DNA from: Escherichia phage IME11
Direction: 5' to 3' (one strand)
Length of the DNA: 64,000 nt
Sequence record: NC_019423.1
In this document: in pieces, positions 1-56,620 of the stretch
Numbering within the stretch: the stretch's first letter is position 1
Layout: every line of letters starts with the position of its first letter
Notes under the pieces: model-generated
Database searches by the model: none
What the model saw: the letters and a program-made list of their open reading frames with translations, nothing else
Told to the model about the DNA's origin: nothing
Made by a program: the position numbers and the translations under genes

Positions 1-153
1 GTTTCAGTTCTATCAAGTGGTACTACGGTATTCTGGTTAAACGTCCAGAACGTCTGGCTATGATTAAGACTGTTGCTCCTCTGTAATAGTCCGAAATAAA
101 ACAAGGGGGACTAATGTCCCCCTCTTAATAAAACTAAATGAACCACAGGAAAT

Positions 154-795: not shown

Positions 796-815
796 CGTAT
801 AAGCTACAGTTCAAC

Positions 816-857
816 ACGGCTCACTGGGGTAACTCCGTGGGCCGTTTCTTTTTGAAC
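816..857 (+). terminator. putative rho-independent terminator
   Basis: ACGGC...GCCGT inverted repeat followed by TTTCTTTTT after the 154-795 stop. Confidence 0.4.
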
Positions 858-865
858 CAAGAGGA

Positions 866-1708: not shown

Positions 1709-1709
1709 T

Positions 1710-4352
1710 ATGGGTTTATTCAGTGGGAAGACCAAAGTATACGTAGCATCCTCTGTCTATAACATGGCAGGGGATATACATAAACGTCCAAACTATATGA
1801 AGACTGTAGTCATTGGTAATATTATTTCCAATACAGGATTCACTATGGCAGATACTATTTCTGATAGTTATCTGAATGGACCGGGTATTCGTATGCGACT
1901 GTTCTCTAGCTGGAGTAAGAACCACTATGATTCAGAAGTTGGTATGGCAGGTTCTTCATTAGGTGTACTGGCTAAGATTGACCCTACTGTTATAGAGGGT
2001 CAAATTACACCTCCTGCTGGAGAGTCTGTCTATGTTCAGGCAGCAGAGATAGGCTTTGCTGACTTTGAGCAATGGTGTGACCAGTATCTTTATGAGAATG
2101 CCCCAAGTCGAATCATGGAACGATTCGACATAGACATTGCTGAAGATACCAATGAAATTACTATGACCTCCTTAGATGGAGGCTCTACTATTACATTCAC
2201 ACCTACTAACTTTGAACCAGGTGCTTTGTATCTCTATGCTGACTACACATTCTATAAGTCACCTACTACTAATCCACCGGTAGAAGGTCCGACTACTGTC
2301 TATGATGATGAGGATGACTTACCCTCCACTTTATTATGGACTACCGTCTCCAGTGATACGACTGCTAATACAACTAACCTTACCAAGACTATACAGACTC
2401 ATTCTGTATACTCTGATGGCAGACCGGATGAAGACAGCACTGTCACAGAACCAAGTGTGGATAACTGGAACTCTTACGTTAAGGTTTATCGCAGAGGATT
2501 CACTGAGAAACCTGATGATGTGACTGTAGTTGTATCTGACAGAGTAATGACTCATACAAAGTTTGGTGAGATTCAATCCAGTACTGCTGTAACTACCAAT
2601 GTAGTTGATATAGGTGGTGGTGTTACTCGCACTGACACAATTACTACAACTACAGAGTCACTGGTTCGCAAGTATTCATCACAGACTACTCGTACTGATA
2701 CAGAAATGGCTGCTGCTGGTACACCTAAGATGCTTATCTATAAACAGAACTCTGGTAACGTTGCACTAGACTCACTGTTTGAAACTGAGGCTACTGATAA
2801 CCGGTTCTACCCATTCATCCCAATAAGGAACGATAAACAATGGGTAGAGAATGACCCAATCTACCCTCACTGCAAGAAGGCTCTTTATAAAGCTACCGGA
2901 GGAAAACTCAATAAAGTAACAGCAGAGCTTAAGAAGAATGATGACATTGGAGATATTCAATACATCTATGGCTCATTCGGTGTATCTCTTAATACACCAG
3001 AGGATACTGCTAAGGAATACATCTACCGTTTCTTTCAGATGGCTACTGAAGCATTCCCACCCGACCCAACTTATCCTACTTTGGAGGCAGTCATTGCAGG
3101 TTATCAGGCAGCTAATGATGCAGTTGATGACTATGTAGCATGGTGGAACAGGCAGGAAGGCCAGATTGTTGGAGCACCCCCACCGCTACCAGAATACCCG
3201 GTCATACCTAAGCGGGAGTTTAGGGTGCACAGTAATAAGCAGTACAAGTATGACATGACTATTGGCTGGAACTACGTATCTGAAACTACCCACTCAGGAC
3301 AAGCATGGGCTGGTGCTAAACAGGGACAACTACGAGCCAGGTATGCAGGAGATATAACTCTTACTCGCAAGAACATACGTACAGGTGATAGCAAAAAACT
3401 AGAGATTACCCCCACGTTTTACTCTATGCAGGAGTATGAATTACTTTGGCAGGATAGTAATAACTCTTACCGTAAACTTAGAGTACTGGGCCTACACCAT
3501 AATAACAGGGTGTATAAAAATAAATCAGTAAACATTGATGTTGCTGAGGCAATGAGTGACGCAGAAGAGAGTGGATTCATTATTCCACTACATACCAACA
3601 TCTACCGTTCCATGTCACTGGTTCGTAGCACTCAGTTATCTACTGCCTGTTCTTACTTAGTAATGAACTCATATAAAAAGGTTAAGAAAAAGTGGTATCA
3701 GTCTTCTGCCTTTAAGATTGTAGTTGTAGTGGTTGCTGTGGTTGTGTCTGTATTTACAGCTGGTGCTGGTGGTGTAGGTATACTTGGGGCATATGGTGCA
3801 GTTGGTGCATCACTAGGTTTTGTTGGATTAGCTGCTGTAATAGTTGGTGCTGTAGCAAATGCCATTGCTGGAATGATTCTGGTATCCCTTATCACAAAAG
3901 TATCCACTTCACTGTTTGGGGATAAACTAGGCTTTATCGTTGCTGCTATTGCTTCAATGGTAGCTACGAACGTTGGTACTGCTTTGTCTACTGGTACATC
4001 ATTATCTACCTTAGCAGGTGAAATGATGAATGCCCAAAACATCATGCAGCTTACCAGCTCAGTAGGTAATGGTATTAGTCAGTATATTAATGCATCCACG
4101 GCTGCTACTATTCAGAAAGCAGAGAGTGTAATGCAGCAGTACAATACTGATATGATGGCAATTAATAAGCAGTACGAAGAAATGTTTGGTACTGCTGGAC
4201 AGGGTGTAATTGACCCTATGCAATTCGTGTCAATGGAGTCGATGGAATCTTTCTTATCACGTACTCTTATGACTGGTTCGGATATAGCTGACTTGTCTTT
4301 AAACATGATTGGCAGCTACTCTGACATGACCCTTAATACTGACCTTGCTTAA
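1710..4352 (+). CDS. putative virion internal/structural protein with C-terminal Gly/Ala-rich hydrophobic segment
   Basis: 880-aa ORF; Thr/Ser-rich middle; long hydrophobic Gly/Ala/Val stretch (VVVVVAVVVSVFTAGAGGVGILGAYGAVGA...) near the C-terminus; three genes upstream of vRNAP. Confidence 0.6.
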   Translation: MGLFSGKTKVYVASSVYNMAGDIHKRPNYMKTVVIGNIISNTGFTMADTISDSYLNGPGIRMRLFSSWSKNHYDSEVGMAGSSLGVLAKIDPTVIEGQITPPAGESVYVQAAEIGFADFEQWCDQYLYENAPSRIMERFDIDIAEDTNEITMTSLDGGSTITFTPTNFEPGALYLYADYTFYKSPTTNPPVEGPTTVYDDEDDLPSTLLWTTVSSDTTANTTNLTKTIQTHSVYSDGRPDEDSTVTEPSVDNWNSYVKVYRRGFTEKPDDVTVVVSDRVMTHTKFGEIQSSTAVTTNVVDIGGGVTRTDTITTTTESLVRKYSSQTTRTDTEMAAAGTPKMLIYKQNSGNVALDSLFETEATDNRFYPFIPIRNDKQWVENDPIYPHCKKALYKATGGKLNKVTAELKKNDDIGDIQYIYGSFGVSLNTPEDTAKEYIYRFFQMATEAFPPDPTYPTLEAVIAGYQAANDAVDDYVAWWNRQEGQIVGAPPPLPEYPVIPKREFRVHSNKQYKYDMTIGWNYVSETTHSGQAWAGAKQGQLRARYAGDITLTRKNIRTGDSKKLEITPTFYSMQEYELLWQDSNNSYRKLRVLGLHHNNRVYKNKSVNIDVAEAMSDAEESGFIIPLHTNIYRSMSLVRSTQLSTACSYLVMNSYKKVKKKWYQSSAFKIVVVVVAVVVSVFTAGAGGVGILGAYGAVGASLGFVGLAAVIVGAVANAIAGMILVSLITKVSTSLFGDKLGFIVAAIASMVATNVGTALSTGTSLSTLAGEMMNAQNIMQLTSSVGNGISQYINASTAATIQKAESVMQQYNTDMMAINKQYEEMFGTAGQGVIDPMQFVSMESMESFLSRTLMTGSDIADLSLNMIGSYSDMTLNTDLA

Positions 4353-4365: not shown

Positions 4366-4809
4366 ATGGATTTGTCATTCTTAACAGGCAACCAAGCTCC
4401 ACAGCCAGCGGCTATGTCTTGGATGTCTAATAACAATCAGAATTTTAATACCCCGGCTATGAACTACAACCCAGGTGCTGCTATTGGTATGGGGGCAGGT
4501 TCGGGAGTAGCTTCCCCTACTTCTTTCATGTCTGGTTCAGCTAATCAGTTGGGCATGAACGTACCAACCTTCCAACTAGGATTAGGTGCACTTGGTTCAT
4601 TAGCTAATATTTACAGTGGTTTCCAGGCTAATAAGTTAGCCAAAGACCAGTTGAACTTTACTAAGAGTGTTACTAACACTAACCTGAATAATCAGATTAA
4701 GTCTTATAACACTGCACTGGAAGACCGTGCTCGTAGTCGTGCTACGGCAGAGAACCGTGACCAGTCTTCGGCTGATGCTTACATTGCAGCCAATAAACTA
4801 ACTCGTTAA
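4366..4809 (+). CDS. hypothetical Gly-rich virion-module protein
   Basis: Track ORF 4345-4809 begins at TTG; ATG at 4366 follows an AGGAGA RBS; low-complexity Gly/Asn-rich. Confidence 0.5.
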   Translation: MDLSFLTGNQAPQPAAMSWMSNNNQNFNTPAMNYNPGAAIGMGAGSGVASPTSFMSGSANQLGMNVPTFQLGLGALGSLANIYSGFQANKLAKDQLNFTKSVTNTNLNNQIKSYNTALEDRARSRATAENRDQSSADAYIAANKLTR

Positions 4810-4823: not shown

Positions 4824-6776
4824 ATGCCGATTACATGGAGAAATGTTGATGCACCTAACTTCTCTGGGGTAGGTGACAGCATTCGCACATTTGGTAGCAT
4901 GATTGGTAACGCCACCTCCGGCTTAAGTGATGCACTGGGTAATTTCCAGAACGCTGCCAAGCAGGAGGCTGGCAATGCCGTCATGATGAATGCTATGCAG
5001 TACCAAGACCCAACTGAGTATCGTAATGCTTTGGCATCTGGTGCACTGTTTCAGGGGGTCGATCCTTCTCTGGTAAACCAGCGTACTCTCCAGAATCTGG
5101 ATGAGCGAGCAGGTACATTACTGACTCAACAAGGTCAACAGGGAACCAATGACTACAATGCTTATCGTTTTGGTCGTTTACAGAATACTGACTCTGCATT
5201 AGATAATGCTTCTCCTGCTATTCGTTTATTGTCTGAGGCTTATCAGTCTGGTGACCAGAACCGTATTAATGCTGCATTAGGTCAGACTCGTGAGGCACTA
5301 TCTGCACTCCCTGCTGACCAACAACTGGATATGTTGGGTAGTCTTCAGGGTCAAGGTGGTCAGGCTATTAACCAAGCACAGAACCGTTTTGATTTGGGTG
5401 TGGCTCAACGTAATGATGCTGATAGTCAGGCAGCTATGGGTGTAATGTCACAGATTACCCGTGGTGCTGAGAACCCTAATGATGCACGTCTGTTGGCAGA
5501 GGCATATAGCAAGAACTTGTCTCCAGTTGCTCAGGCACGTTTGCAGGGATTACTGGCTAGTGCTTATCCTGGTGTATATGGTAATGGTGTAGGTGCTGCA
5601 TCTGCTCCGGGTACTGCCGGTACTCGTCAGGGTTCCCCATATGATGTTACTTACCAGTTTGCTGGTACTTCCACTCCTATTACTCAAATGAGTATTGGTG
5701 ATGTAATCAAGCACCAGGATGGTATGAAGACGAACCAAGGTGCTTCACCTGTTGGTGCATTCCAGATTAACCAAGCTACCTTGAAAGACTTTGCTCCCAA
5801 AGTTCTCGGTTCAGATTGGCAAAGCCAGCCTCTTTCTGCTGAGAACCAGGATAAGATTGGTAAGGCTATCTTCGAACAGCGTAAGAATGGCAACCTTAAG
5901 GATACTTGGGCTGCACTTCCTAATGCTGGTGTTGGTGCATATAAGGATATGACCTGGGAAGAGATTAAACCAATTATTGCACAGGCAGAAGTTGGTGCTA
6001 ATCCGTTAGCTATGCGTCAAACTGCACAGGGTAACCAAGCTGTATCTACCTTGGCTCAGGGTATGATTGGTACTCGTTCTATGCAGGATAACACCGGTAG
6101 TCTTAATACCGACTTCCTTGGTACTGTCACTGATAATACCCCGGTAGGTGAGATTGCTAATCGACTGTTGGAAGGTGACTTTAAAGGTGCTGACCGTAAC
6201 TGGGTACTGAACCGACTAACTGATATTTCTCAACGTGGGAATATGTCACCAGCTATGGCTGCTGCTGTTATGCAACGTGCACAGACTGGCGTACCGGAAG
6301 GTTACATTAGCCGTGCTATTGATGCGGTTAACCCATTCATTACCAATGAAGCTGGTAATGGTATGCGTCTTAATGACCGTCAGGTAGAGCAGTTAATTGA
6401 GGGTGTACGTCGAGGCGAACCACTGGAAGGTAGTGTACGTAACCTGAGTCGTGCTCAGGCAGCACAGAACATTCAGGCAGCACAGACTGCTTATGATGCT
6501 GCTGTAGCTGCACTGATGAATACCCAGAACAAGATTAACACTGGACAAAGTGGTCTTACTGCATTGTTACCTGCACGACAGGAAGCTGTTACTAAAGCTG
6601 CTGCAATGCTACAAGCTGCTCAAGGACAAGTACAAGCAGACCCGGCTAACCTGGCTCCAAGAGGTTTCCAGTCACAGGCTAGTGTGGACAGAGCGCGAGC
6701 CAAGGAAGATGAAGAGCGTGCTGCTCGATACTTACGTCAGGCACAAGGTTTGCCTGAGTATATGCAACCTCGTTAA
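4824..6776 (+). CDS. putative virion protein with possible lytic-transglycosylase-like segment
   Basis: 650-aa ORF directly upstream of vRNAP; segment GAFQINQ...WAALPNAGVG weakly resembles SLT-domain motifs; strong terminator downstream. Confidence 0.5.
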   Translation: MPITWRNVDAPNFSGVGDSIRTFGSMIGNATSGLSDALGNFQNAAKQEAGNAVMMNAMQYQDPTEYRNALASGALFQGVDPSLVNQRTLQNLDERAGTLLTQQGQQGTNDYNAYRFGRLQNTDSALDNASPAIRLLSEAYQSGDQNRINAALGQTREALSALPADQQLDMLGSLQGQGGQAINQAQNRFDLGVAQRNDADSQAAMGVMSQITRGAENPNDARLLAEAYSKNLSPVAQARLQGLLASAYPGVYGNGVGAASAPGTAGTRQGSPYDVTYQFAGTSTPITQMSIGDVIKHQDGMKTNQGASPVGAFQINQATLKDFAPKVLGSDWQSQPLSAENQDKIGKAIFEQRKNGNLKDTWAALPNAGVGAYKDMTWEEIKPIIAQAEVGANPLAMRQTAQGNQAVSTLAQGMIGTRSMQDNTGSLNTDFLGTVTDNTPVGEIANRLLEGDFKGADRNWVLNRLTDISQRGNMSPAMAAAVMQRAQTGVPEGYISRAIDAVNPFITNEAGNGMRLNDRQVEQLIEGVRRGEPLEGSVRNLSRAQAAQNIQAAQTAYDAAVAALMNTQNKINTGQSGLTALLPARQEAVTKAAAMLQAAQGQVQADPANLAPRGFQSQASVDRARAKEDEERAARYLRQAQGLPEYMQPR

Positions 6777-6792: not shown

Positions 6793-6816
6793 AAAAGCCC
6801 TCCGGGGCTTTTTTCT
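6793..6816 (+). terminator. rho-independent terminator
   Basis: AGCCC-tccg-GGGCT hairpin followed by TTTTTT, directly after the 4824-6776 stop. Confidence 0.7.
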
Positions 6817-6879
6817 TTAACTGGCTTACTGTAGAGTAAGCTTCCTATATACGATATAAGTTTGAACAGGAAACATGCT

Positions 6880-9800
6880 ATGTCAACATTTGACCGTCTG
6901 GCAGGTTTCGCAGACAGCATCACTAATGCTAAGCAAGTCGATGTCTCTACTGCAACCTCTCAGAAGCAAGCTGCACAAGGGCAAAGCCCTTTCCAATTAA
7001 CCCCAGAGAACGCTTACAATCTCCAAACAGGACGAGTAGGTAATCTTGGAACTGGTGCATTCGATCCAGGTTCACTTCAGGCTGATTTCACCCAAGCCTC
7101 CCCATTAGAAATCATTAATAAGTACGGTAATGAGCAAGGTCTACAGATTCTTAATAGCCGAGCTAATGCTGCTGATGTCGTACGTCAGGACTTATCTAAA
7201 CAGCGTACTAACTCAGAAGCATTTGGCGATACTCTTTCTGGTGTTGGTCTTGGTGTTGCTAATACCCTTGGGGGCATTGCTGCTCTTGGCACAGGTCTGG
7301 TCAATGATAATGCCGGGGCATCCATTGCTTCCGGGATGGATTGGCTGAATGAAGGTGTACATAATCTACAGTCTGATGCACTGAATGCTACTCGTAAGGT
7401 TGTTCAGAATCAGAACCAGATTTCTGCACAAGAGAACCAGAAACTCTATGAAGAAGATATCAAAAATGGGGAGAGCAGTTTGGTTGCCTCCTTGTCTCGC
7501 ATTGGTCGTGACGCTTTTGATTCTGTTGCTAATACACTTGATAATGGTATGGCTGCTTCCGATGGACTGAGTGAAGGTGTTGGTTCTCTCTTTACTGGTG
7601 GTCCACTTATCCGTGGTGTGTCTGCACTAGGTAAAGTAATGGTAGGTGGGGATAAAGCTGTTAAGGGTATTACCCTAGCTGCTGAGTTAGGTTCACGTCC
7701 TGCACAGGTTGCTCTGTCTGCTGGTCGTGTTGCTGCACCTGCTGTAGCAATCGGTGGTATGGAAGCTGGTGGAGCATACCAACAGACTGCTTCTGAAATC
7801 ATGAAGATGTCTCATCAAGAGTTGGCAAGTAAGTCTCCTGTATATCGACAACATATTGCTGATGGTTTATCTCCTGATGAAGCACGCCGTCAGACTGCAT
7901 CTGAAACAGGTATTACTGCTGCTGGCTTAACTGCTCCAGTTGCTGCTGCTACTGGTCCACTGGTATCTCGTTTTGAACTTAACCCACTTAAGGTAGGTTC
8001 ACTGGCTGGTGCTGGTTCTAACATGCTCCGTGAAACTGTAGAAGAGGGTATTCAATCCGGCTTCGGTCAGTTCGCACAGAACACTGCAATTAAGGAAAAT
8101 GTTGATGCATCCCGTGACACCCTCAAAGGGGTTGGTGAGCAAGCAGGTCTGGGTGCACTCTATGGCTTTGGTAGTGCTGGAGTTGCTCAAGCTCCTGGTG
8201 CAACTGTTAAAGCTGCTGGTGCTGCCGTTGGTCCTACTGTACGTACTACCTTGGCTGGTGCTTCTCTGGTTGGTAATGCACTAGCAAAAGTAGCTTCTCC
8301 TATCACTAACATTCTGGTTCAACGTGGAGAAGAAGTTGCTAAGCGAAATGAACAAGCATCTCCTGTATCAGATGCTACCGTTAATGCTGCTGCACAAGAA
8401 GCTACTGCTCAAGCAGAACAAGCACAAGCAACCGTACAGGAAGCAGTAGATGCAATGGATATTTCTCCTGAAGAGAAAGCTGCTGCTACTCAGTATGCTG
8501 CTGACTTAACTCAGGCAATGAAGTTTGACCCAGTAGAACTGGAGCAAGCTAACCCGGCAATCCGTGAAGCTGTTTCTGGTTCCACTAACCGTGTTGAGGC
8601 TATCCAGAAGATGGCTGACTTGGTTAATACTGCCGAAGACCCTAACATTCAAATGGAAGCTGCTATTCAGATGTATGACAACATCATGTCTATGGATAGC
8701 TTCATTAACCGTGACCCAGGTGCACTAGCTAATCTGGAACAAGGCTCTCCTGCTGCTAATATTGTTGACCAGTTCTCTGGTCTGATGGCTAACGTTCAGA
8801 ATACACCGAAGGTACTTCGTGCATTCCGTGCTATTCATTCCATGATTCAGGAACAGGCTGAAGCAGGTAAACTGAAAGCTACTGAAGAAGCTAACCAAGC
8901 TCAGGCAAACAACATTGCTATGGCTGCTGATATGTCTCCAGAAGTTCTGGATGCAGATTCAGTGAACATGGTTCTGAAACATGCTAGTGAAGGTAAGATT
9001 ACACTGGGGAATCGTCAACGTGCTGCCCTGCAATCGGCTGCTGCTGTCTTACAGGGTGCACGTGAGTTCGACGCTAAGGCAGAAGAACTTGGCTTACGTC
9101 CTCAAGACATTGTTAGTAAACAGATTAAAACTGACGAATCTCGTTCTAATGAAGGCCAGTACTCTGCGTTGCAACATGCGAAACGCATTCGCTCTGCGTA
9201 CAACTCTGGTAACTTTGATTTGGCCTCCGCTTACCTTGACGACTTTATGAAGTTCGCCCAGCACATGCAGAATAAGGTCGGAGCGTTGAATGAGCATCTG
9301 ATTTCGGGGAATGCGGATAAGAATAAGTCTGTTCACTATCAGGCTCTCTCGCCTTCCCGTGAATGGGTACGTAGTCGTACTGGCCTCGGTGTTAATCCGT
9401 ATGATACCAAGTCGGTTAAGTTTGCCCAGCAAGTAGGACTGGAAGCCAAGACCGTAGCTGATATTGCTAATGCACTTGCTACGGCTTACCCGGAGCTTAA
9501 TGTTTCTCATGTTAAAGTTACTCCATTAGATTCACGTCTGGACAAGCCTGCTGCCCAGGTGGTTAAAGAGTTCCGTCAGGGCAATCTTGACGCTGCTCAA
9601 TCCCAACAGACTAATGAACCAGTGAATCAGGTTGATGAATCTCCTGCACCAGTGCAAGAGGCCACTACTACTGTACAGCCTAAAACTAAACCAGTGGTAG
9701 AAAATAAATCTGCTCCTGTTAAGGATACTAGTTCAAAACCAGAAGAAGTAACTACTACTGAGTCTGAAACAGTAGATACTGCCCTCACCAATGAGGATAC

Positions 9801-12800
9801 CACTCAGGAAGTAGCTGAAACTAAAACGGAAATGGAAACAGTGTTCCCTGTCTATAACAATGACAAGACACCGAGCCAGTTCCTTAAAGCATTTGCTCTG
9901 CCGGAAGAACCTAAGACTCGTACCATTGGTTCTGAATCTCCTTTGACTGATGTTAAGCAAGCACTGTCTTCTGCTGCTCGCTTTGAAGCATTCACACAAA
10001 AAGAAAATAACGCTCTCACGGGTGATGTGATGAAACGTTATCAAGACTTACTAGGCTTTGGTGAAACTCTGAAGAGTACTCTGTCTGACCGTCTGGCTAA
10101 GTTCCTTGCTAACAAGAATGTTGGTAAACGTTTTGCAGAGGGTACTGAGGCTAACCGTTGGGTAGGTGGCAAACTGCTGAATATCGTTGAGAAAGATGGC
10201 GACACCTTTAAGTTCAACGACCAGTTGTTGGAGACTGCTGTACTTGCTGGATTGCAATGGCGATTAACTGCTACGCAGAATGCTGCCATTAAAGACATGA
10301 AAGACGTAGCTGCTATTACTGGTGTAGAAGTATCCTTGTTACCTGATGGTATTCTGGCTGACTTTGAGAATGCTCAGACCCTGGTTGAAGCTACTAACTC
10401 ACTGGCCCAAAAGATTGAATCTTACTGGGGTTTGAATCGTAATCCAAATGCACCACTGGGTTATACCAAAGGTATCCCAATGGCAATGGCTACGGAGATT
10501 CTGTCTTCTCTCATTGAGATGGGTGAAGTTAAAGAGTCTATGCTGGATGTGTCTGAAATTGACCCAGCCTCCAATAAGACTGTTGGTCTGTATACTATTG
10601 AGAAGCTGGATGATAATGATGCCATTAATAATTTTCCTACTGCTATTGAGGAAGCTGTCCTCGTAGAACCAGAAGAGAAAATGTACTTCGGTGATGATAT
10701 TCCTTCCGTGGCTCAAACTCAGTTACGTAACCCGGCTGTTAAGAATACCCCGGAACAGCAAGCTGCTCTTAAAGCAGAACAGGCTACTGAGTTCCGTGTA
10801 CACATGCCTATGGTTAACTTCTATGAAGCATTGGGTCGTGACAACATTCTGGAACTGATGGGTGCTGGTACTCTTAATCCTGAATTACTGAACGTAAACA
10901 CTGCTAAATCATTGGAAGGTAAAAACCTGTCCGTGTCTATGGCATACGATTCCTTGTTTGGGGTAATCAATCAGGTTCAGGAACAGGAGAACGGACTGGA
11001 TACACCTATTCACTATGGTTACAACATGACCCGTGTAGGTCGTATGCAGATGCTTGGTAAGAATAACCCACAATCCAGTAAGCTGGTTCGTGAAGCAATT
11101 CTGCCAACCTTCTCTACTATCGACTTGAGTAATGAAAACAGCCAAACGTTCTCAGACTTCCAGTTAGGTCTGGCTCAGGCATTAGGCATCAAGGTACATA
11201 ACATGTCCCGTGAAGCTATGTCTGAAAAGCTGACTAAAGCTCTGGAAGGTAATCTGAAACCTGCTGTTGATATGATGGTTGAGTTTGATAAGTCTGGTCA
11301 CTTACCTACTGATGCAGTGGATATTCTGAAGACCTCTTTAGGTGGCGATAAATCATTCGTAGCTCTCATGGCTCTGATGGAATATGCCCGTTACCTGAAT
11401 AGTAACGACCGTGCTAATTTTAATACCCCACTGTACGTTGAAGCCGATGGTGTAACCAACGGACCAATTAACGCAATGGTATTAATGACCGGTGGTAAGT
11501 TCACTCCAGACTGGATTAAGAATACTGCTAAAGGTGGTTTGTTCTTCGGTAAAGCTGGTAAGACTATGAACGAGCATCGTTCACAGGATGACAGTGTTGA
11601 CCTGTATGAAGCATCTACTAATGGTCTGCAACAGGCACTTGGTGAATTACGTAGTACTTACCGTAACAACGTTCCTGTTATGAGCCAGATGAGTCATCTC
11701 CAGAAGTTAATGGACCTGTTCATCAAAGACTTTAACCTGAATGAAGACGGTACACTGGACCTGAAACGTGGTATCGCTAAAAATCCACTAACCATTACCA
11801 TCTATGGTTCTGGTGCTCGTGGTATTGCTGGCAAGATGGTTAGTGCAATTACTGATACCATCTACGAACGCTTCAGCGACGTTCTGCAAGCTCGTGCTGC
11901 TGACCCTAGCATTTCCCCGGCTATGGCAATGTTTGGTAAGGAGGCTGCATCTGAGGCCGATGCTCAGGCTATGCTGGATACTTTCCTTACTTCTATGGAA
12001 GCACTGACTGGTAATGTTCCAGTTATGCGTAAGGGTGAGTTGTCTATTCAGCAAGCAGAAGGTGCTCTGACTGGTAAGTTAGACCCACAGAAGTTTACTG
12101 TATCTGGTAATGCCCTGAAGAACTTACAAGAGAACATGCTTCACCTGTTCGTTGAACCAATGCGTACTGGTATCCGAAATACTGTTGGTGAAGGTCTGAT
12201 GCATTCTACTGAGAACTTACAGAAGGCTACCCAGATTCAATCTCTGGTATTGCAGGATATGTTCCAACAAGCAGTACAGGCTAAACTGGCAGAAAAAGAA
12301 AAAGACCCAACATGGAAGAAAGGTGATTTCTTAACACAGAAAGAACTGAATGAAATTCAGGAATCATTATCTCCACTGGCTCCAATGATTGAGACTGGCT
12401 CACAGACTTTCTACATTGCTGGTAGTGAGAACACTGATGTTGCTAACCAAGTACTGGCTACTAACTTAGATGACCGTATGCGTGTGCCAATGAGCATCTA
12501 TGCTCCTTCACAAGCAGGTGTTGCAGGTATTCCATTTATGACCATCGGTACTGGTGACGGCATGATGATGCAGACCCTTTCTACTATGAAAGGTGCTCCG
12601 AAGAATACCCTGAAAATCTTTGATGGTATGAACATTGGTATCAATGACATCACTGATGCAAGTCGTAAAGCTAATGAGGCTGTATATACTTCCTGGCAGG
12701 GTAACCCTATCAAGAATGTTTATGACTCCTTTGCTAAGTTCATGAAGAACGTAGACTTCAGCAAACTGTCTGATGAAACCAAACAGGCTATCGCTAAATC

Positions 12801-15800
12801 TGCTCTGGAATACGACCAGCGTGAGGGTGCTACTGATGACCTGTTACGTATTGGTGCTGAACAGATTGAACGTAATCTGCGTAACATTGCTCTGGGTGTA
12901 GATATTCGCCACAAGGTAATGAACCAGGTACAGACTACTGTTGACCAGATGGCTGCTGTAGGTGCTCCTTATGTGAACAACGGTAAAATTTCTCTGGAAG
13001 GTCTGACTGTAGACCAACAAGTAGCTAAGCTGAACGAACTGTTTGATGTTGAATTAAACAAGCGTCGTGATGCAGTACGTGCTGCTAAAGCAGAACCAGT
13101 GAAAGAAGTACCAGCAATGGAACAGGTTGGTCGTGTACTGAAGTCTGGTGTACGTCTACTGTCTAATACTGCTATTACTAAGTTGGCTAAAGAGATGACT
13201 CCAGAACAGGCTGCTGTACTGAAAGAAGTACAGAACTCCCTTGCTGCTAAAGACTACAAGGTTGTTTATGGCACTCCTTCTCAACTGGATGCCTACGCTA
13301 TTGAGAAGAACATTACTCGCCCAGCACCGGAAGATATTGAAGCTGCTGAAGCTGGTAATGCATACGGCTGGACTAACTTTGATGATAAGACCATCTACTT
13401 AGTTACTCCTTCCTTAGAGACTCTGGTTCATGAATTGGTACATGCTTCTACTTTTGAATCTGTACTGGCTCACTATGAAGGTACTCCTAATGAAGCAGTT
13501 CAGAATATTGAAGACCTGATGAACCAGTTCCGAACTCTGGATGTTAAGGATGAATCCCCGGCAGTACGTGAAGCATATGCTGATGCACTCAATACCATTA
13601 ATGGTCACTTGTCTAATGGCTTTATTGAACCAGCAATGGCTAAAGCTGCTGCACTGAATGAGTACATGGCATGGGGCTTAACCAACCGTGAACTGATTGG
13701 TAAGCAGAAGAAAACCACTGCACTTAAGGCCATGGTTCAGTCTGTGTATGAAGCAATCAAACGTCTGGTATTCGGACGTAAGAAAGCCCCTGCTAACGCA
13801 GATGATATGTTCTCTGGCTTACTGTTTAACTCTTCTGTAGTTATGCGTGGGCAGGCTCCTACTGCTGCTGTAGCCAAGGACACTACTCTGTTCCATAACA
13901 AAGCATATGGTGACAATACTCGTCTGGAAGAGCTAGGGAAGACCTTCGATAAACTGATTACTAACTACATTGGTTCAGAACCAGTACAACAAGTAATTCG
14001 TAAAGGTAAGTTCTCTGATGCAGTAGTGAATGCAACTAAAGTAACCCGTGATGTTCAGGCTCATGGCTTCACTATGAATATGCAGGAACAGCGTCTCTTT
14101 ACTAACATTGTTGCTGCACTGGCTACCGAAGCTGCTATTAGTCCAGCTGCTCTGGCTCGTGCACAAGAATACTATGCACACGTAACCAAGAACCTGACTG
14201 TTGAAGCGTTCATGACTGACCCGGATAGTACTAACCCTGCTGACCGTTACTACGCACAGCAGAAGTTCGATACCATCATGGGTGCTAACAACATTGAGTT
14301 TGATGCACAAGGTCGTTCTTCCTTACTGCCTACCTTTGTGGCACTGGCAATGGTAAGTGAAGATGTACGTAATGTGCTGGCTGACATTCCTGTTATGAAA
14401 GCAGATAAGCAATCCGGTAATACCGTTGATGCAATGCTGACTAATATCGGTACTGCTGCAATGGCTAGTCTGAATGCTCGTGTAGCAGGTGATACTAAAG
14501 CTACCAATGTACAAGAAGGTATGGATGCACTGGCTCAGACCATCATGCAGACCAGTCTTAATGCACAGTCATTCTATGATTCCGTCGCCACTCCTAGTGG
14601 TAATGCTATAGACCGTGCTAACCAGTATCTGGTGGACTCTATTGATGTACTGTCTACCCGTGCTTTAGAAGGTGCTCGTGAAGTTGCAGCTAATACCAAG
14701 AACCCGTTGGTTAAAGGTGCTGCTCATGCTGCACAACTGGTAGCTGCTATTGCTACAGAGAAGAATGGTGCAATCGTAGCTGAAGGTGTTATGGCTGCAA
14801 TGAACCAGGGTAAAGCATGGCAACCTTTCCACGACCTGGTTAATGACTTAACCGGACGTACTAAGAGCAATGCTTCTGTATATGATTTGATTAAAGCAGT
14901 TCGTGCACAGGTACAGGCTGACCGTCAACAGTTCCGTGAACACTTACCTACCACTATCGCATCCAAGTTCAGCCGTAAGCTGACTAATGATGAGTGGAAA
15001 GCAATGCATACCGGTATGGGTAAAACTGACTTGGCTGTCCTGCGTGACACTATGTCTTTGGCTGAAATTCGTGACCTGCTGACTGACCAGAAGATTGTTG
15101 ACCGTGAGGTGAATAAGCTGGAAGCAGATTTACAGAAACAAGCAGGACGTAACTGGCCTTTGATTAGCCGTAAATCTAAGCAACTGGCTCAGTACATGAT
15201 TAACGGTACAGTCGGTAGTAACCTGCTGCGTAATGCTACTGCAATTTCTCGTATGCTGGGTGAACGACAGGCTGCACGTTCTACCGTAGATGTGGCTCAA
15301 CTGGATAAGCTGATTACCTTGTATGCACTGGAAGCAATGAATAAGACTGACCGTGAGATGTTATCTTCACTGGCTCAGACAGAAATTGAAGGTATGGACT
15401 TTGCTACTTCTTATCTGGTTGGGCAGCGTAAAGATGAAATGGCTAAAGCCAAGTCTGATATGCGTGCAACCTTGAACCAGTACAAAGGACATATCCCCAG
15501 TGAAACTAAACAGGGTGTTAACCTGATTGTTGCTGAAGATAGTCAGTTTGCTGATTTGATTGAGAAGTCCTATGTACGTCTGGGTACTTATCAAGGTAGT
15601 TCTGCTAACCGTGGTCCAGCACGTAGCTACTACTTTGCACCAGTACAGGCACAGGCTCCATTCTCACAGGGTATATTACAGAACGTTCGCAATACTGCTG
15701 GTGGTGTGGACCTTGGTACAGGCTTTACGATGGGTTCCATGGTAGCAGGTCGTATCACTGACAAGCCTTCCGTAGACCGTATCACTAAAGCTCTGGCTCG

Positions 15801-17232
15801 TGGTGAACGTGGTAATGAACCACTGCTGCCTGTATATGATGACAAAGGGAATGTGGTTGCTTATGAGCAATCCATTGACCCTAACATGCTGAAGCACATT
15901 GAGGGTGAGAACCATCTTGCTCGTGCAATCGGTGTATGGCGTGGTCGTCAGGTAGAAGAGGCTAAGGCTCAGCGTTTCAACGATATGCTTATTGAGAACC
16001 TACATAGCATGTATGAGAACGACATTAAGATGTCTGCCTCTAATAAGTCCCAGTACGTTAACCTTCTTGGTTCTAAACTGGACCCAGTAACTGCCGATGC
16101 TCTTAAGCTGATGAATAGTGAAACTCGTCAGAAAGCAGAAAGCCTGTTTGGCCCGGGTGAGTTGTGGGTACGTCGTGATATGCTCAACGATGCTCTTGGT
16201 TATCGTGCAGCTTCTGTAGGGGATGCCTGGTCTGGTAATTCTCGTTGGTCCCCAGAAACACTGGATACCTTCAAGAAAGCTATGCTAGGTGTATTTGGCA
16301 ATCGTGCATATAAGTACACAATGGGTGGTGAGAACCTGGTTCAGAACTTAGTTAAAGAAGCTAAGACCCTGATTGTAGTTAAGTCAGTAGTCGTACCTGC
16401 AGTTAACTTCCTAGCTAACCTTTACCAGATGGTTGCTCGTGGTGTACCGGTTAAGAACATTGCTAAGAGCATTCCACAGAAGACTGCTGAGATTAACCAG
16501 TACCTGAAATCTCGTCTACGTCAGGTAGATGCAGAAGCAGAATTACGTGCAGCTACTAACCCGAACCAGATTCGTAAACTTAAGGCTGAGATTCAGTCCA
16601 TCTCTGATAGCCATAAGCGTTTAAGTATCTGGCCTCTGTTAGAAGCTGGTGAGTTCTCTTCAATTGCAGATGCTGGTATCGGACGTGATGACATCCTTAT
16701 TACTGAGGGTAAACTTCACGAATACATGGATAAGCTGGCTGATAAGCTACCTAAGTCTGTACGTAACGCAGGTCGTTATGCACTTATCACTAAGGATACT
16801 GCTCTCTTCCAGGGTATCCAGAAGACGGTTGAGTACTCTGACTTTATCGCTAAAGCAATCATCTATGATGAACTGACTCAGCGTAAAGGTAAGACTCGTG
16901 AGGAAGCACTGGGACGTGTAACGGAAGAGTTCATTAACTATGATCGTTTACCTGGTCGCTTCCGTGGGTATATGGAAAGCATTGGCTTAATGTGGTTCTA
17001 CAACTTTAAGATTCGTTCTGCAAAAGTTGCAGTGTCCATGATTCGTAATAACCCAGTACATGCTGCTATGGCTATGTTGGCTCCAACCCCTACCATGTTT
17101 GGTAATGTTGGTTTACCTATTCAGGACAACATCTTCAGCATTGCTGCACAGGGCAATCTCGGTTACTCCTTCGGTTTCGGTCAGGGCTTACGTGCCCATA
17201 ACCTGAACCCTTGGCTCAATCTTACTAACTAA
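6880..17232 (+). CDS. virion-encapsidated giant RNA polymerase (N4 vRNAP-like)
   Basis: ~3450-aa single ORF (track start 6862 is TTG; ATG at 6880 follows AGGAA). T7-like motif A YVEADGVTNGPIN (Asp codon 11446-11448), motif B RGIAKNPLTITIYGSG (~11770-11815), motif C KIFDGMNIG (Asp codon 12622-12624). The two Asp are 392 aa apart, the spacing I recall for N4 vRNAP. Confidence 0.9.
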   Translation: MSTFDRLAGFADSITNAKQVDVSTATSQKQAAQGQSPFQLTPENAYNLQTGRVGNLGTGAFDPGSLQADFTQASPLEIINKYGNEQGLQILNSRANAADVVRQDLSKQRTNSEAFGDTLSGVGLGVANTLGGIAALGTGLVNDNAGASIASGMDWLNEGVHNLQSDALNATRKVVQNQNQISAQENQKLYEEDIKNGESSLVASLSRIGRDAFDSVANTLDNGMAASDGLSEGVGSLFTGGPLIRGVSALGKVMVGGDKAVKGITLAAELGSRPAQVALSAGRVAAPAVAIGGMEAGGAYQQTASEIMKMSHQELASKSPVYRQHIADGLSPDEARRQTASETGITAAGLTAPVAAATGPLVSRFELNPLKVGSLAGAGSNMLRETVEEGIQSGFGQFAQNTAIKENVDASRDTLKGVGEQAGLGALYGFGSAGVAQAPGATVKAAGAAVGPTVRTTLAGASLVGNALAKVASPITNILVQRGEEVAKRNEQASPVSDATVNAAAQEATAQAEQAQATVQEAVDAMDISPEEKAAATQYAADLTQAMKFDPVELEQANPAIREAVSGSTNRVEAIQKMADLVNTAEDPNIQMEAAIQMYDNIMSMDSFINRDPGALANLEQGSPAANIVDQFSGLMANVQNTPKVLRAFRAIHSMIQEQAEAGKLKATEEANQAQANNIAMAADMSPEVLDADSVNMVLKHASEGKITLGNRQRAALQSAAAVLQGAREFDAKAEELGLRPQDIVSKQIKTDESRSNEGQYSALQHAKRIRSAYNSGNFDLASAYLDDFMKFAQHMQNKVGALNEHLISGNADKNKSVHYQALSPSREWVRSRTGLGVNPYDTKSVKFAQQVGLEAKTVADIANALATAYPELNVSHVKVTPLDSRLDKPAAQVVKEFRQGNLDAAQSQQTNEPVNQVDESPAPVQEATTTVQPKTKPVVENKSAPVKDTSSKPEEVTTTESETVDTALTNEDTTQEVAETKTEMETVFPVYNNDKTPSQFLKAFALPEEPKTRTIGSESPLTDVKQALSSAARFEAFTQKENNALTGDVMKRYQDLLGFGETLKSTLSDRLAKFLANKNVGKRFAEGTEANRWVGGKLLNIVEKDGDTFKFNDQLLETAVLAGLQWRLTATQNAAIKDMKDVAAITGVEVSLLPDGILADFENAQTLVEATNSLAQKIESYWGLNRNPNAPLGYTKGIPMAMATEILSSLIEMGEVKESMLDVSEIDPASNKTVGLYTIEKLDDNDAINNFPTAIEEAVLVEPEEKMYFGDDIPSVAQTQLRNPAVKNTPEQQAALKAEQATEFRVHMPMVNFYEALGRDNILELMGAGTLNPELLNVNTAKSLEGKNLSVSMAYDSLFGVINQVQEQENGLDTPIHYGYNMTRVGRMQMLGKNNPQSSKLVREAILPTFSTIDLSNENSQTFSDFQLGLAQALGIKVHNMSREAMSEKLTKALEGNLKPAVDMMVEFDKSGHLPTDAVDILKTSLGGDKSFVALMALMEYARYLNSNDRANFNTPLYVEADGVTNGPINAMVLMTGGKFTPDWIKNTAKGGLFFGKAGKTMNEHRSQDDSVDLYEASTNGLQQALGELRSTYRNNVPVMSQMSHLQKLMDLFIKDFNLNEDGTLDLKRGIAKNPLTITIYGSGARGIAGKMVSAITDTIYERFSDVLQARAADPSISPAMAMFGKEAASEADAQAMLDTFLTSMEALTGNVPVMRKGELSIQQAEGALTGKLDPQKFTVSGNALKNLQENMLHLFVEPMRTGIRNTVGEGLMHSTENLQKATQIQSLVLQDMFQQAVQAKLAEKEKDPTWKKGDFLTQKELNEIQESLSPLAPMIETGSQTFYIAGSENTDVANQVLATNLDDRMRVPMSIYAPSQAGVAGIPFMTIGTGDGMMMQTLSTMKGAPKNTLKIFDGMNIGINDITDASRKANEAVYTSWQGNPIKNVYDSFAKFMKNVDFSKLSDETKQAIAKSALEYDQREGATDDLLRIGAEQIERNLRNIALGVDIRHKVMNQVQTTVDQMAAVGAPYVNNGKISLEGLTVDQQVAKLNELFDVELNKRRDAVRAAKAEPVKEVPAMEQVGRVLKSGVRLLSNTAITKLAKEMTPEQAAVLKEVQNSLAAKDYKVVYGTPSQLDAYAIEKNITRPAPEDIEAAEAGNAYGWTNFDDKTIYLVTPSLETLVHELVHASTFESVLAHYEGTPNEAVQNIEDLMNQFRTLDVKDESPAVREAYADALNTINGHLSNGFIEPAMAKAAALNEYMAWGLTNRELIGKQKKTTALKAMVQSVYEAIKRLVFGRKKAPANADDMFSGLLFNSSVVMRGQAPTAAVAKDTTLFHNKAYGDNTRLEELGKTFDKLITNYIGSEPVQQVIRKGKFSDAVVNATKVTRDVQAHGFTMNMQEQRLFTNIVAALATEAAISPAALARAQEYYAHVTKNLTVEAFMTDPDSTNPADRYYAQQKFDTIMGANNIEFDAQGRSSLLPTFVALAMVSEDVRNVLADIPVMKADKQSGNTVDAMLTNIGTAAMASLNARVAGDTKATNVQEGMDALAQTIMQTSLNAQSFYDSVATPSGNAIDRANQYLVDSIDVLSTRALEGAREVAANTKNPLVKGAAHAAQLVAAIATEKNGAIVAEGVMAAMNQGKAWQPFHDLVNDLTGRTKSNASVYDLIKAVRAQVQADRQQFREHLPTTIASKFSRKLTNDEWKAMHTGMGKTDLAVLRDTMSLAEIRDLLTDQKIVDREVNKLEADLQKQAGRNWPLISRKSKQLAQYMINGTVGSNLLRNATAISRMLGERQAARSTVDVAQLDKLITLYALEAMNKTDREMLSSLAQTEIEGMDFATSYLVGQRKDEMAKAKSDMRATLNQYKGHIPSETKQGVNLIVAEDSQFADLIEKSYVRLGTYQGSSANRGPARSYYFAPVQAQAPFSQGILQNVRNTAGGVDLGTGFTMGSMVAGRITDKPSVDRITKALARGERGNEPLLPVYDDKGNVVAYEQSIDPNMLKHIEGENHLARAIGVWRGRQVEEAKAQRFNDMLIENLHSMYENDIKMSASNKSQYVNLLGSKLDPVTADALKLMNSETRQKAESLFGPGELWVRRDMLNDALGYRAASVGDAWSGNSRWSPETLDTFKKAMLGVFGNRAYKYTMGGENLVQNLVKEAKTLIVVKSVVVPAVNFLANLYQMVARGVPVKNIAKSIPQKTAEINQYLKSRLRQVDAEAELRAATNPNQIRKLKAEIQSISDSHKRLSIWPLLEAGEFSSIADAGIGRDDILITEGKLHEYMDKLADKLPKSVRNAGRYALITKDTALFQGIQKTVEYSDFIAKAIIYDELTQRKGKTREEALGRVTEEFINYDRLPGRFRGYMESIGLMWFYNFKIRSAKVAVSMIRNNPVHAAMAMLAPTPTMFGNVGLPIQDNIFSIAAQGNLGYSFGFGQGLRAHNLNPWLNLTN

Positions 17233-17266
17233 ATAAAAAAGCCCCTCTAGTGAGGGGCTTTACTTT
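17233..17266. terminator. bidirectional rho-independent terminator between convergent vRNAP and minus-strand block
   Basis: AAATAAAAAA-GCCCCTC-tagt-GAGGGGC-TTTACTTT: 7-bp GC stem flanked by an A-run and a T-run. Confidence 0.7.
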
Positions 17267-19069: not shown

Positions 19070-19328
19070 CGACTCTAGGGGACTTAGTACTATTTACCCA
19101 TAGCTGGGAGGCTTTTGGTTCTTACCACGAAGACAGTCCACGCTGACTAGGCTTGGGATTGATAGTCCCGTTCCTGTGGTAATTACTCAGGCTAGGATTT
19201 AAGGAGTTCCTATTCTCCAGCGAAATTCCCGTCGAGGGGAATAACAATACAATAGCAGTCACTGGACTGTCTTACCAGTGTTGTCTTTAGAGTGCTATGC
19301 AATCAGGACTATGTTACTGCTGAATGGG

Positions 19329-19402
19329 TGTCCACTACTGGATTTGAACCAGTGACTTTCCGATTATTAGTCGGTTGCTTTCCCCGTCTAAGCTAAGTGG
19401 AC
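19329..19402 (-). tRNA. tRNA; manual fold gives anticodon loop CUAAUAA (anticodon AAU, Ile-reading) - needs software confirmation
   Basis: 74-nt cloverleaf: 7-bp acceptor GTCCACT/AGTGGAC, D arm GCTT/AAGC, anticodon stem CCGA/TCGG, T arm ACTGG-TTCAAAT-CCAGT; CCA not encoded. Confidence 0.6.
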
Positions 19403-19408: not shown

Positions 19409-19484
19409 TGGTTACCCAGGCAGGATTCGAACCTGCGTCCTAGTTGGTTTACTAGTGGGGCTTTACCACTAAGCCTACTGGGTA
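19409..19484 (-). tRNA. tRNA-like gene with encoded CCA and non-canonical anticodon loop (6 or 8 nt)
   Basis: 76 nt: perfect 7-bp acceptor TACCCAG/CTGGGTA, D arm GGCT/AGCC, T arm GCAGG-TTCGAAT-CCTGC, discriminator A plus CCA. The anticodon arm only pairs as CTAGT/ACTAG with a 6-nt loop (AAACCA) or as a 4-bp stem with an 8-nt loop. Confidence 0.55.
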
Positions 19485-49516: not shown

Positions 49517-49545
49517 CGCTTATTCTCCTAAATGTGATTAATAAC

Positions 49546-49564
49546 CAAAAGCTGCGGAGCAGCT
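49546..49564 (-). promoter_or_regulatory. N4-type vRNAP hairpin promoter (template on plus strand, transcription leftward)
   Basis: CCAAAA-AGCTGC-GGA-GCAGCT: 6-bp stem, GGA loop; CC at 49545-49546 sits 11 nt 5' of the loop-centre G (template +1/+2, giving a GG-initiated RNA). Confidence 0.6.
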
Positions 49565-53318: not shown

Positions 53319-53328
53319 TTACATCATC

Positions 53329-53347
53329 CATAAGACGCGGAGCGTCT
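53329..53347 (-). promoter_or_regulatory. N4-type vRNAP hairpin promoter
   Basis: CATCCATA-AGACGC-GGA-GCGTCT; CC at 53328-53329 is 11 nt 5' of the loop-centre G. Confidence 0.6.
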
Positions 53348-54410: not shown

Positions 54411-54448
54411 GATGATAGCTCCAATAGTTGATGATAGGACGACATGTC

Positions 54449-54467
54449 CATAACATGCGGAGCATGT
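54449..54467 (-). promoter_or_regulatory. N4-type vRNAP hairpin promoter (the one furthest to the right in this window)
   Basis: GTCCATA-ACATGC-GGA-GCATGT; CC at 54448-54449 is 11 nt 5' of the loop-centre G. Confidence 0.6.
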
Positions 54468-54643
54468 GTAACGTGTAAGGTGGGGTAGGGTAGTGGCTAC
54501 ACCGTCAACATACCGGGGGGGCTAGTTGAGTGTAAGGGTGTAGCCCCAGCCACACCACTGTAGCCATACATAGCTATCATCATTTTGGTATGCAAAAATA
54601 CCATAGCTATCCTACTTATAAGCAGTTAAATAGGAGGAAGCTT

Positions 54644-55923: not shown

Positions 55924-55926
55924 AAC

Positions 55927-56605: not shown

Positions 56606-56620
56606 AGTTGCATACCTCCT

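Follow-up and report, generated by a model that had tools for sequence, protein, structure and literature searches.

The giant open reading frame of Escherichia phage IME11 as a virion RNA polymerase gene orthologous to N4 gp50

The 64,000-nucleotide stretch of Escherichia phage IME11 DNA considered here (NC_019423.1; hereafter the window, at its full length) contains one reading frame of exceptional size, and this locus raises the question of which protein it encodes and whether that protein still has the attributes of a polymerase. An earlier note, made from the letters alone, had described a single ORF of about 10.35 kb with a product of about 3450 residues, read as a virion RNA polymerase (vRNAP). 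The gene indeed occupies positions 6880 to 17232 of the + strand, from an ATG at 6880 to a stop codon ending at 17232, and its translation gives 3450 amino acids plus the stop (10.35 kb) in a frame free of internal stops. The mechanical ORF call began at a TTG (6862-17232) with the ATG at 6880 in frame. This ATG lies 8 nt after a Shine-Dalgarno-like AGGAAA run; since residue 1 falls opposite Met1 of N4 gp50 in the phmmer alignment (MSTFDRLAGF vs MSVFDRLAGF) and the annotated start in Escherichia phage 24-32N is the same, ATG 6880 is the supported start.

Using phmmer, we aligned the product with N4 gp50, the comparison that the earlier note had proposed as a check. Residues 1-3449 match residues 1-3499 of gp50 (full-length cryo-EM chains) end to end with 5015 bits, a score that takes the match beyond chance, and residues 999-2069 match the crystal chains of mini-vRNAP (2po4, 3c2p, 3q0a) with 1689 bits. 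The length of 3450 residues lies within the ~3000-4100 expected of a polypeptide of the gp50 family. Identity to gp50 is 66.9% overall; it is highest in the mini-vRNAP region with 71.5%, followed by the C-terminal domain (CTD) with 68.6% and the N-terminal domain (NTD) with 59.3%. Four Pfam families, N4_RNAP_helical, vRNAP_dom_2, vRNAP_dom and vRNAP_plug (PF21624, PF21894, PF21769, PF21867), are matched with 100-336 bits, the cut-off for these vRNAP domains being 27 bits, and PHROG 2206, 'virion RNA polymerase', is matched over positions 5-3405 of its 3406. We therefore regard it as nearly certain that this ORF is the N4 gp50 orthologue, and thus the vRNAP, of a coliphage that is N4-like and belongs to the G7C group (Gamaleyavirus, Schitoviridae).

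The window vRNAP has the same NTD-polymerase-CTD layout as N4 gp50 (PDB 2PO4, 3C2P, 3Q0A, 9PNQ, 9PNR, 11GP) and is 50 residues shorter than the 3500 of the latter, the insertions and deletions between the two being concentrated in two flexible linkers (N4 933-1028 and 2110-2148), the first of which is not resolved in the N4 structure (Table 1). For the NTD of N4, a part in genome injection and an association with both membrane and gp51 have been proposed, whereas encapsidation depends on the CTD, which also autoinhibits the polymerase (domain limits and roles in PMC13492108 and PMC13434306). Both proteins are devoid of cysteine, a peculiarity already pointed out for N4 vRNAP (PMC2784036): the window protein has none in 3450 residues, where about 35 would be expected from the window's remaining long ORFs, and among the matches listed the family has 7 in 495,482 residues (132 of 139 representatives with none, the other 7 with one each).

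Table 1. Coordinates of the vRNAP domains and motifs, the neighbouring genes and the early promoters in the window (aa, residues of the window vRNAP)
Feature	Position	Strand	Remarks
gp52 homologue (ejection protein)	4366..4809	+	57% identity to N4 gp52, E = 1e-47
gp51 homologue (ejection protein), directly upstream of vRNAP	4824..6776	+	48% identity to N4 gp51 over 620 aa
Terminator-like hairpin with T-run, between gp51 homologue and vRNAP gene	6793..6812	+	
N-terminal domain, ~aa 1-914 (= N4 1-919)	6880..9621	+	59.3% identity to N4 residues 1-997
Linker 1, ~aa 915-984, shorter than in N4	9622..9831	+	most window-vs-N4 indels in N4 933-1028
Polymerase (mini-vRNAP) domain, ~aa 985-2071	9832..13092	+	phmmer to crystal chains, four Pfam domains, 71.5% identity
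Promoter -11G recognition residues R1084, W1094	10129..10161	+	= N4 mini-vRNAP R119, W129; both kept in alignment
T/DxxGR motif, TRVGR, aa 1384-1388	11029..11043	+	R1388 = N4 R424; invariant in 10 vRNAPs
Motif A, YVEADGVTNGPIN, from aa 1519	11434..11472	+	catalytic D1523 (GAT 11446-11448) = N4 D559
Motif B, RGIAKNPLTITIYGSG, from aa 1630	11767..11814	+	K1634, Y1642 = N4 K670, Y678
Motif C, KIFDGMNIG, from aa 1912	12613..12639	+	catalytic D1915 (GAT 12622-12624) = N4 D951
C-terminal domain, ~aa 2082-3450	13123..17229	+	68.6% identity to N4 residues 2104-3500
CTD subdomain C1, aa 2083-2326	13126..13857	+	HExxH (HELVH, nt 13429-13443), E2211, NEYMAWGL (E2261)
Terminator-like hairpin, both strands scored, 6 nt past vRNAP stop	17238..17261	.	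+ and - genes converge there
P3-equivalent vRNAP early promoter	49545..49564	-	upstream of RNAPII subunit homologues gp15 (48698-49516, -) and gp16 (47013-48230, -)
P2-equivalent vRNAP early promoter	53328..53347	-	upstream of gp2 homologue (52842-53318, -)
P1-equivalent vRNAP early promoter	54448..54467	-	upstream of gp1 homologue (54087-54410, -)

Motifs T/DxxGR, A, B and C follow one another in this order in the polymerase domain with the two catalytic aspartates, and motifs A, B and C lie exactly where the earlier note had put them. The equivalents of N4 R424, K437, D559, Y612, R666, K670, Y678, D951, K114, R119 and W129 are all kept in the alignment, and the R, D, K and D residues of the motifs are invariant across 10 diverse vRNAPs. 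The position of N4 mini-vRNAP K267, a putative DNA contact, is occupied by Asn in the window protein. The role of R119 and W129 at promoter position -11G is described in PMC13492108, and the N4 catalytic residues, including D559 and D951 in mini-vRNAP numbering, are listed in PMC2784036, citing Kazmierczak 2002; in gp50 numbering these two are D1556 and D1948, and they align with D1523 and D1915 of the window.

From D1523 to D1915 there are 392 residues, as computed previously from codons 11446-11448 and 12622-12624, and the same spacing, which the earlier note had given for the N4 catalytic pair, is found between the two aspartates of gp50 (PMC2784036). This exact value is shared because the two proteins are close orthologues with no insertion or deletion in between. 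As a signature of the vRNAP family it was rejected: N4, the window, 24-32N and JWAlpha have a spacing of 392, six other subfamilies have 391, 384, 372, 356, 365 and 368, and over the wider Schitoviridae it ranges from 355 to 419 (median 391, exactly 392 in 3 of the 94 measurable family cluster representatives among the matches listed). A spacing of exactly 392 marks only the near relatives of N4.

The polymerase had also been called T7-like, which holds at the level of motifs and fold and does not extend to the sequence as a whole. The window vRNAP has motifs T/DxxGR, A, B and C in common with T7 and mitochondrial RNAPs, and by transitivity, through the 71.5%-identical N4 crystal structures, its polymerase domain would adopt the right-hand palm-fingers-thumb fold. 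Pfam RNA_pol (T7-type) gave no match in the window vRNAP at E <= 0.1, and the phmmer PDB matches included neither T7 nor mitochondrial RNAP chains. In size the window protein exceeds T7 RNAP about fourfold; in the latter, the catalytic aspartates D537 and D812 are 275 residues apart. No sequence match to T7 RNAPs was to be expected since the N4 papers report motif-level similarity only, together with the shared right-hand fold (PMC13492108). Unlike the T7-like enzymes, a vRNAP of the N4 type would be packaged and injected and would recognise a DNA hairpin rather than a duplex. The virion RNAP gp66 of crassvirus phi14:2 is likewise a giant polymerase ejected from the virion, but it is described in the literature as fundamentally distinct in global structure, and it is absent from the phmmer matches of the window protein.

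The surroundings of the gene also correspond to those of N4. The synteny gp52-gp51-gp50 is common to N4 and the window, and the same order is found in JWAlpha, Rexella, RHEph16 and DEV. The hairpin promoters mentioned by the earlier note as lying elsewhere do exist: the pattern CCAWAA-NNN-GC-GGA-GC occurs three times in the window, with 0 expected by chance, and the three hairpins pair one to one in alignment with N4 P1, P2 and P3. All have a 6-bp stem and a GGA loop, with a C in the template at a distance of 11 nt from the centre of the loop, the hairpin of P1 being formed in the template (+) strand. They conform to the form expected of early promoters for this polymerase family, in which a stem of 5-7 bp bears a 3-nt loop with a central purine at -11. 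N4 and the window thus have in common three hairpin promoters with GC-GGA-GC cores, the loop of P1 being GGA in the window vs GAA in N4. Many shuffled sequences equal the P1-like hairpin in stability (z = -1.2), although its sequence is kept with N4 P1. The homologues of gp1, gp2, gp15 and gp16 downstream of these promoters are 65-69% identical to their N4 counterparts.

The mechanism of N4 vRNAP (PMC13492108, PMC13434306) can be projected onto these elements. The gene would be expressed late and a few copies of its product would enter the capsid via the CTD; packaging of the window vRNAP is likely because its CTD is 68.6% identical to that of N4, which is needed there for encapsidation. On infection the protein would pass through the tail after the ejection proteins gp52 and gp51 and would be anchored at the inner membrane by its NTD. 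[quoted passage not shown] D1523 and D1915 would hold the catalytic metals, R1388, K1634 and Y1642 would handle the NTPs, the CTD may autoinhibit the polymerase and early transcription by vRNAP may also help to draw the genome in. In N4, early transcription is rifampicin-resistant and depends on hairpins and on gyrase and SSB (PMC13492108, PMC13434306). Whereas sequence, motifs, orthology, synteny and cognate promoters were observed here, we infer by homology that the window vRNAP is packaged and ejected, depends on hairpins for initiation and is autoinhibited, and its presence in IME11 virions is likewise predicted from homologues, as vRNAP is found in virions of N4 and, by mass spectrometry, in those of other phages (Moo19 gp67 and B2 gp30; PMC11654681).

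The first subdomain of the CTD, C1, carries an HExxH motif that has already been pointed out for N4 (PMC13434306). All 139 giant vRNAP cluster representatives among the matches listed possess the motif, and HELVH, E2211 and E2261 do not vary among 8 diverse vRNAPs. An 'internal virion protein' from a different phage (PDB 9sfn_G, E = 6e-6), a structure on which a literature search found nothing relevant, shares the C1 module, which occurs twice in one vRNAP (P0025). C1 was considered as a candidate zincin-type metallopeptidase, which would combine HExxH and a third ligand further downstream with a zincin fold. No peptidase family was matched by C1, Pfam at E <= 10 returning noise only, and a search for homologous proteins gave 3 fragments. 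The AF2 model of C1 from the single sequence was poor (pLDDT 58), and Foldseek of this poor model against PDB recovered only N4 gp50, with an rmsd of 12 A, followed by helical-bundle noise. On the strength of the signature HExxH...E...NE(F/Y)MAWGL, C1 might be a catalytically active metal-dependent hydrolase and more than a scaffold, an idea that we put forward tentatively and consider rather unlikely.

Other readings of the ORF have to be weighed. In the literature on N4 and DEV, vRNAP counts as the third of the ejection proteins and shares an operon with gp51 and gp52. As the gp52-gp51-vRNAP synteny is also present in the window, one could imagine that the protein serves mainly as a structural component of ejection, in analogy to T7 gp16, with a polymerase domain that is vestigial in this lineage. 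In N4, however, the ejection role adds to that of polymerase and does not replace it; in the window all the catalytic residues checked and both -11G-contact residues are kept, the polymerase domain is the best conserved part of the protein and three cognate hairpin promoters still stand ahead of the early genes, so that this reading seems to us very improbable.

The labels in GenBank would make the ORF something else again, since orthologues are called 'DNA polymerase' in PBM-2, PBM-3, UE-M6 and ST4 and 'translation initiation factor 2' in phi G17, but Pfam, PHROGs and PDB give vRNAP only, motif B shows K...Y of the RNAP type at the positions of N4 K670 and Y678, and the close relative 24-32N has a 'DNA polymerase' of its own annotated in a different part of the genome; we attach practically no credence to these labels. 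The unusual length and the mechanical start at an upstream TTG could also suggest an assembly or reading artefact joining several genes. Such an artefact is next to inconceivable for a frame collinear over its full length with the 3500-residue gp50 and with 139 giant cluster representatives (3236-4182 aa) among the 150 matches listed, and whose gene is covered for at least 80% in one place by 57 phage records. The reading as the vRNAP orthologous to gp50 is retained, and we found nothing of substance that speaks against it.

Among relatives, the annotated vRNAP of Escherichia phage 24-32N (Gp57) has 97.1% DNA identity and 42 amino acid differences, all point substitutions and evenly spread, and about 50 Gamaleyavirus records have 92-94% DNA identity. 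The Gamaleyavirus coliphages 24-32N, Mimir124, phi G17, PhAPEC5 and PhAPEC7 have the same gene, length and neighbours as the window; PhAPEC5 and VTCCBPA_322 appear with about 360 bp extra inside the vRNAP gene that the window lacks. In distant Schitoviridae (Pseudomonas DEV gp71, Vibrio JA-1, roseophage R7L, Rhizobium RHEph16), vRNAPs of 21-35% identity are also giant single chains with no Cys in which R, D, K and D of the motifs are kept, along with a homologous CTD and, in most, HExxH, but their Asp-Asp spacing is 356-372 and not 392, and the residues opposite N4 R119 and W129 are not conserved.

The vRNAP gene, its motifs, domain structure and mechanism are already established for N4, of which full-length cryo-EM structures appeared in 2025-2026, and near-identical phages already carry the annotation of the gene; this locus adds nothing new to the biology of vRNAP. 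A by-product of the analysis is that several GenBank orthologues prove to be mislabelled as 'DNA polymerase' or 'translation initiation factor 2'. If C1 were indeed a hydrolase, the entire vRNAP family would share this property, which would not be peculiar to the window, with cell-envelope processing or self-processing during ejection as possible roles. For the phage itself, the vRNAP fixes the identity of the window as the genome, circularly permuted and nearly complete, of an N4-like coliphage from the G7C group, and accounts for the hairpin promoters and the early-gene block found elsewhere in it.

The + strand of the window contains a single very long ORF in a mechanical ORF call, from a TTG at 6862 to the stop at 17232; six codons inside it an ATG at 6880, preceded by AGGAAA, opens a product of 3450 aa with no internal stops. 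Escherichia phage 24-32N, its nearest relative in GenBank, has its start annotated at the same position, and the N-terminus MSTFDRLAGFADS... pairs with Met1 of N4 gp50, the virion RNA polymerase (vRNAP) of phage N4, in a phmmer search against PDB chains. The ORF of ~10.35 kb and ~3450 aa, the three motif peptides and the two catalytic Asp codons (GAT 11446-11448 and GAT 12622-12624, 392 residues apart) described in an earlier note were all recovered at the positions claimed in the translated ORF.

Features of the vRNAP region and early promoters of the window
Feature	Nucleotides	Strand	Residues	Remarks
gp52 homologue	4366-4809	+		57% identity to N4 gp52; upstream of gp51 homologue
gp51 homologue	4824-6776	+		48% identity to N4 gp51; directly upstream of vRNAP gene
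Terminator-like hairpin	6793-6812	+		between gp51 homologue and vRNAP gene
Motif A, YVEADGVTNGPIN	11434-11472	+	aa 1519	
Motif B, RGIAKNPLTITIYGSG	11767-11814	+	aa 1630	
Motif C, KIFDGMNIG	12613-12639	+	aa 1912	
C1 subdomain	13126-13857	+	aa 2083-2326 (N4 2124-2375)	first C-terminal subdomain
HELVH	13429-13443	+	aa 2184-2188	within C1
Terminator-like hairpin	17238-17261	both strands scored		after vRNAP stop; + and - genes converge there
P3-like hairpin	49545-49564	template +		aligns with N4 P3; upstream of gp15-gp16 homologues (-)
P2-like hairpin	53328-53347	template +		aligns with N4 P2; upstream of gp2 homologue (-)
P1-like hairpin	54448-54467	template +		aligns with N4 P1; upstream of gp1 homologue (-)

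This gene is real, correctly interpreted, and a known and annotated one of a well-characterised kind. Its DNA is 97.1% identical over the full length to the gene that 24-32N has annotated as "virion RNA polymerase" (the proteins differ at 42 of 3450 positions, evenly spread) and 92-94% identical to about 50 other records of coliphages and of Shigella and Klebsiella phages, including phi G17, PhAPEC5, PhAPEC7 and, besides these, three records named Gamaleyavirus. Full-length N4 "Virion DNA-directed RNA polymerase" chains in the PDB (11gp, 9pnq, 9pnr and others) are matched end to end (query 1-3449, target 1-3499, 5015 bits), and residues 999-2069 match crystal chains 2po4, 3c2p and 3q0a of mini-vRNAP, the central polymerase domain of N4. 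Four vRNAP-specific Pfam domains (N4_RNAP_helical, vRNAP_dom_2, vRNAP_dom and vRNAP_plug) score 100-336 bits for cut-offs of 27, and phrog_2206, "virion RNA polymerase", is matched across its entire profile.

Some orthologues (MH358458/NC_070870, PV053165, PV029541, PP301343, OM982646) are evidently mis-annotated, as "translation initiation factor 2" or as "DNA polymerase", and the 24-32N record has an antisense "hypothetical protein" annotated within the vRNAP gene (L002 21215-21631). In PhAPEC5 (KF192075/NC_024786) and VTCCBPA_322 (PP989839) the match is split in two pieces that span ~360 bp more than the query, which suggests an insertion inside the gene that the window lacks. The distal C-terminal domain (CTD), aa 2652-3397 (nt ~14833-17070), also matches phrog_19273, a profile of 4846 positions and unknown function (E = 4e-24); this match suggests that the C2 module of the CTD also occurs in a further family of phage proteins, larger still.

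Pairwise alignment by MAFFT with N4 gp50 (from NC_008720) gave 66.9% identity overall, with 59.3% in N4 residues 1-997, 71.5% in mini-vRNAP (998-2103) and 68.6% in 2104-3500. The N4 catalytic residues, given in PMC2784036 with reference to Kazmierczak 2002 as R424, D559, K670, Y678 and D951 (mini-vRNAP numbering), align with R1388, D1523, K1634, Y1642 and D1915 of the window protein. N4 K437, Y612, R666, K114, R119 and W129 are also conserved, R119 and W129 being the pair that reads the hairpin promoter's -11 guanine and stacks on it (PMC13492108); the positions aligned with these two differ in the six vRNAPs that are more distant (Rexella to JA-1). With 50 aa fewer than gp50, the window protein is shortened mostly within N4 933-1028 and 2110-2148, the two flexible linkers that join the N-terminal domain (NTD), polymerase domain and CTD and are unresolved by cryo-EM (PMC13492108, PMC13434306).

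From motif A to motif C there is no indel relative to gp50, which explains why both proteins have their two Asp 392 residues apart. The N4 value given in the earlier note was thus right, but the exact number does not hold family-wide. Among ten vRNAPs aligned from different Schitoviridae subfamilies, 392 is found in the window, N4, 24-32N and JWAlpha, and the others have 391 (Pokken), 384 (Rexella), 372 (RHEph16), 356 (R7L), 365 (DEV) and 368 (JA-1). When 1.84 billion cluster representatives were searched by phmmer with the C1 subdomain, 367 matched, and giant proteins (3236-4182 aa) make up 139 of the 150 matches listed. A simple motif pattern located both Asp in 94 of those 139; their spacing is 355-419 (median 391) and exactly 392 in three. 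As the spacing varies to this extent, a sequence spacing of exactly 392 only marks a close relative of N4.

The motif R, D, K and D are invariant in all ten aligned vRNAPs, and the motif B Tyr is substituted in DEV only. The "T7-like" description is borne out by the four motifs and the published N4 structures but not by sequence searches, since phmmer against the PDB and Pfam gave no link from the window protein to T7 or mitochondrial RNA polymerases; the N4 literature itself rests this relationship on motifs and structures (PMC13492108). The window protein contains no cysteine, where the composition of the window's other long ORFs would predict ~35; the ten aligned vRNAPs also have none, and the 139 giant representatives among the matches listed have 7 in 495,482 residues. 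This absence has long been noted for the N4 and roseophage vRNAPs (PMC2784036).

The hairpin promoters that the earlier note mentions as lying elsewhere were found as three copies of CCAWAA-NNN-GC-GGA-GC-NNN (none expected in shuffled sequence) on the + strand, the template for the leftward early genes. They align one-to-one with the N4 hairpins at 96, 565 and 4554 in NC_008720, the P3-like core being identical. Each has a 6-bp stem and a GGA loop (-4.7 to -5.7 kcal/mol), a C in the template 11 nt from the G at the loop centre, and a - strand ORF 22-50 nt downstream. These ORFs encode homologues of N4 gp1 (66%), gp2 (69%) and gp15 (65%), the last followed by gp16 (68%), the genes transcribed by vRNAP in N4 (PMC13492108, PMC13434306).

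Relatives share only ~91% identity with the early region and match it as numerous separate segments, a pattern suggestive of mosaicism. Just beyond the P1-like promoter (~54500-57000 onward) come further small ORFs on the - strand, followed by + strand genes; P1 of N4 is ~100 nt from the left end of its genome. Because genes continue past this promoter and the GC skew turns at ~52-56 kb, the window seems either to run across the genome termini or to derive from a record that is circularly permuted. ARAGORN also called two adjacent tRNA-like genes on the - strand (19327-19402 and 19409-19484), one a tRNA-Ile with anticodon AAT and the other with an aberrant 2-nt anticodon loop call.

The gp52-gp51-vRNAP gene order is also found in JWAlpha, Rexella, RHEph16 and DEV. 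Judged from its sequence, the window has the prerequisites for every step of the mechanism proposed in N4 studies (PMC13492108, PMC13434306). The N4 capsid packs about four vRNAP copies, with the CTD needed for encapsidation (PMC13492108, PMC13434306), and vRNAP was detected in virions of the related phages Moo19 and B2 by mass spectrometry (PMC11654681). By analogy with N4, the ejection proteins gp52 and gp51 would be expelled after receptor binding to form an envelope-spanning conduit, and vRNAP would follow through a 30-35 A channel, its domains only loosely joined like "beads on a string". The NTD would remain with gp51 at the inner membrane while the polymerase domain and CTD refold in the cytoplasm, the CTD keeping the plug, together with the motif B loop, autoinhibited. 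The polymerase would then bind promoter hairpins that gyrase-driven supercoiling extrudes and host SSB stabilises, and transcribe the early genes.

The C1 subdomain carries a module with the signature HExxH...E...NE(F/Y)MAWGL, whose H, E, H, E2211 and E2261 (in NEYMAWGL) are invariant in eight diverse vRNAPs aligned; the conserved HExxH of N4 C1 was already mentioned by Bellis et al. 2026 (PMC13434306). A Pfam search of C1 for a zincin-like or other domain returned nothing, and a single-sequence AF2 model was poor (pLDDT 58), Foldseek with that model returning only N4 gp50. An "Internal virion protein" of 1337 aa (9sfn_G) is also matched by the C1 profile at E = 6e-6, the alignment including its HEAVH and ELVAWGLT. 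In some metagenomic vRNAP homologues, the NTD-polymerase linker holds a second HExxH/ELVSWGL module copy (P0025) or, as judged by eye, a helicase-like insert with the P-loop GSAGTGKTT (P0028, 4082 aa) and a possible acetyltransferase-like insert (P0029). All 139 giant vRNAP representatives among the matches listed have a HExxH at the equivalent position, and a zincin-like fold in C1, if present, would belong to the vRNAP family and not to this window in particular.
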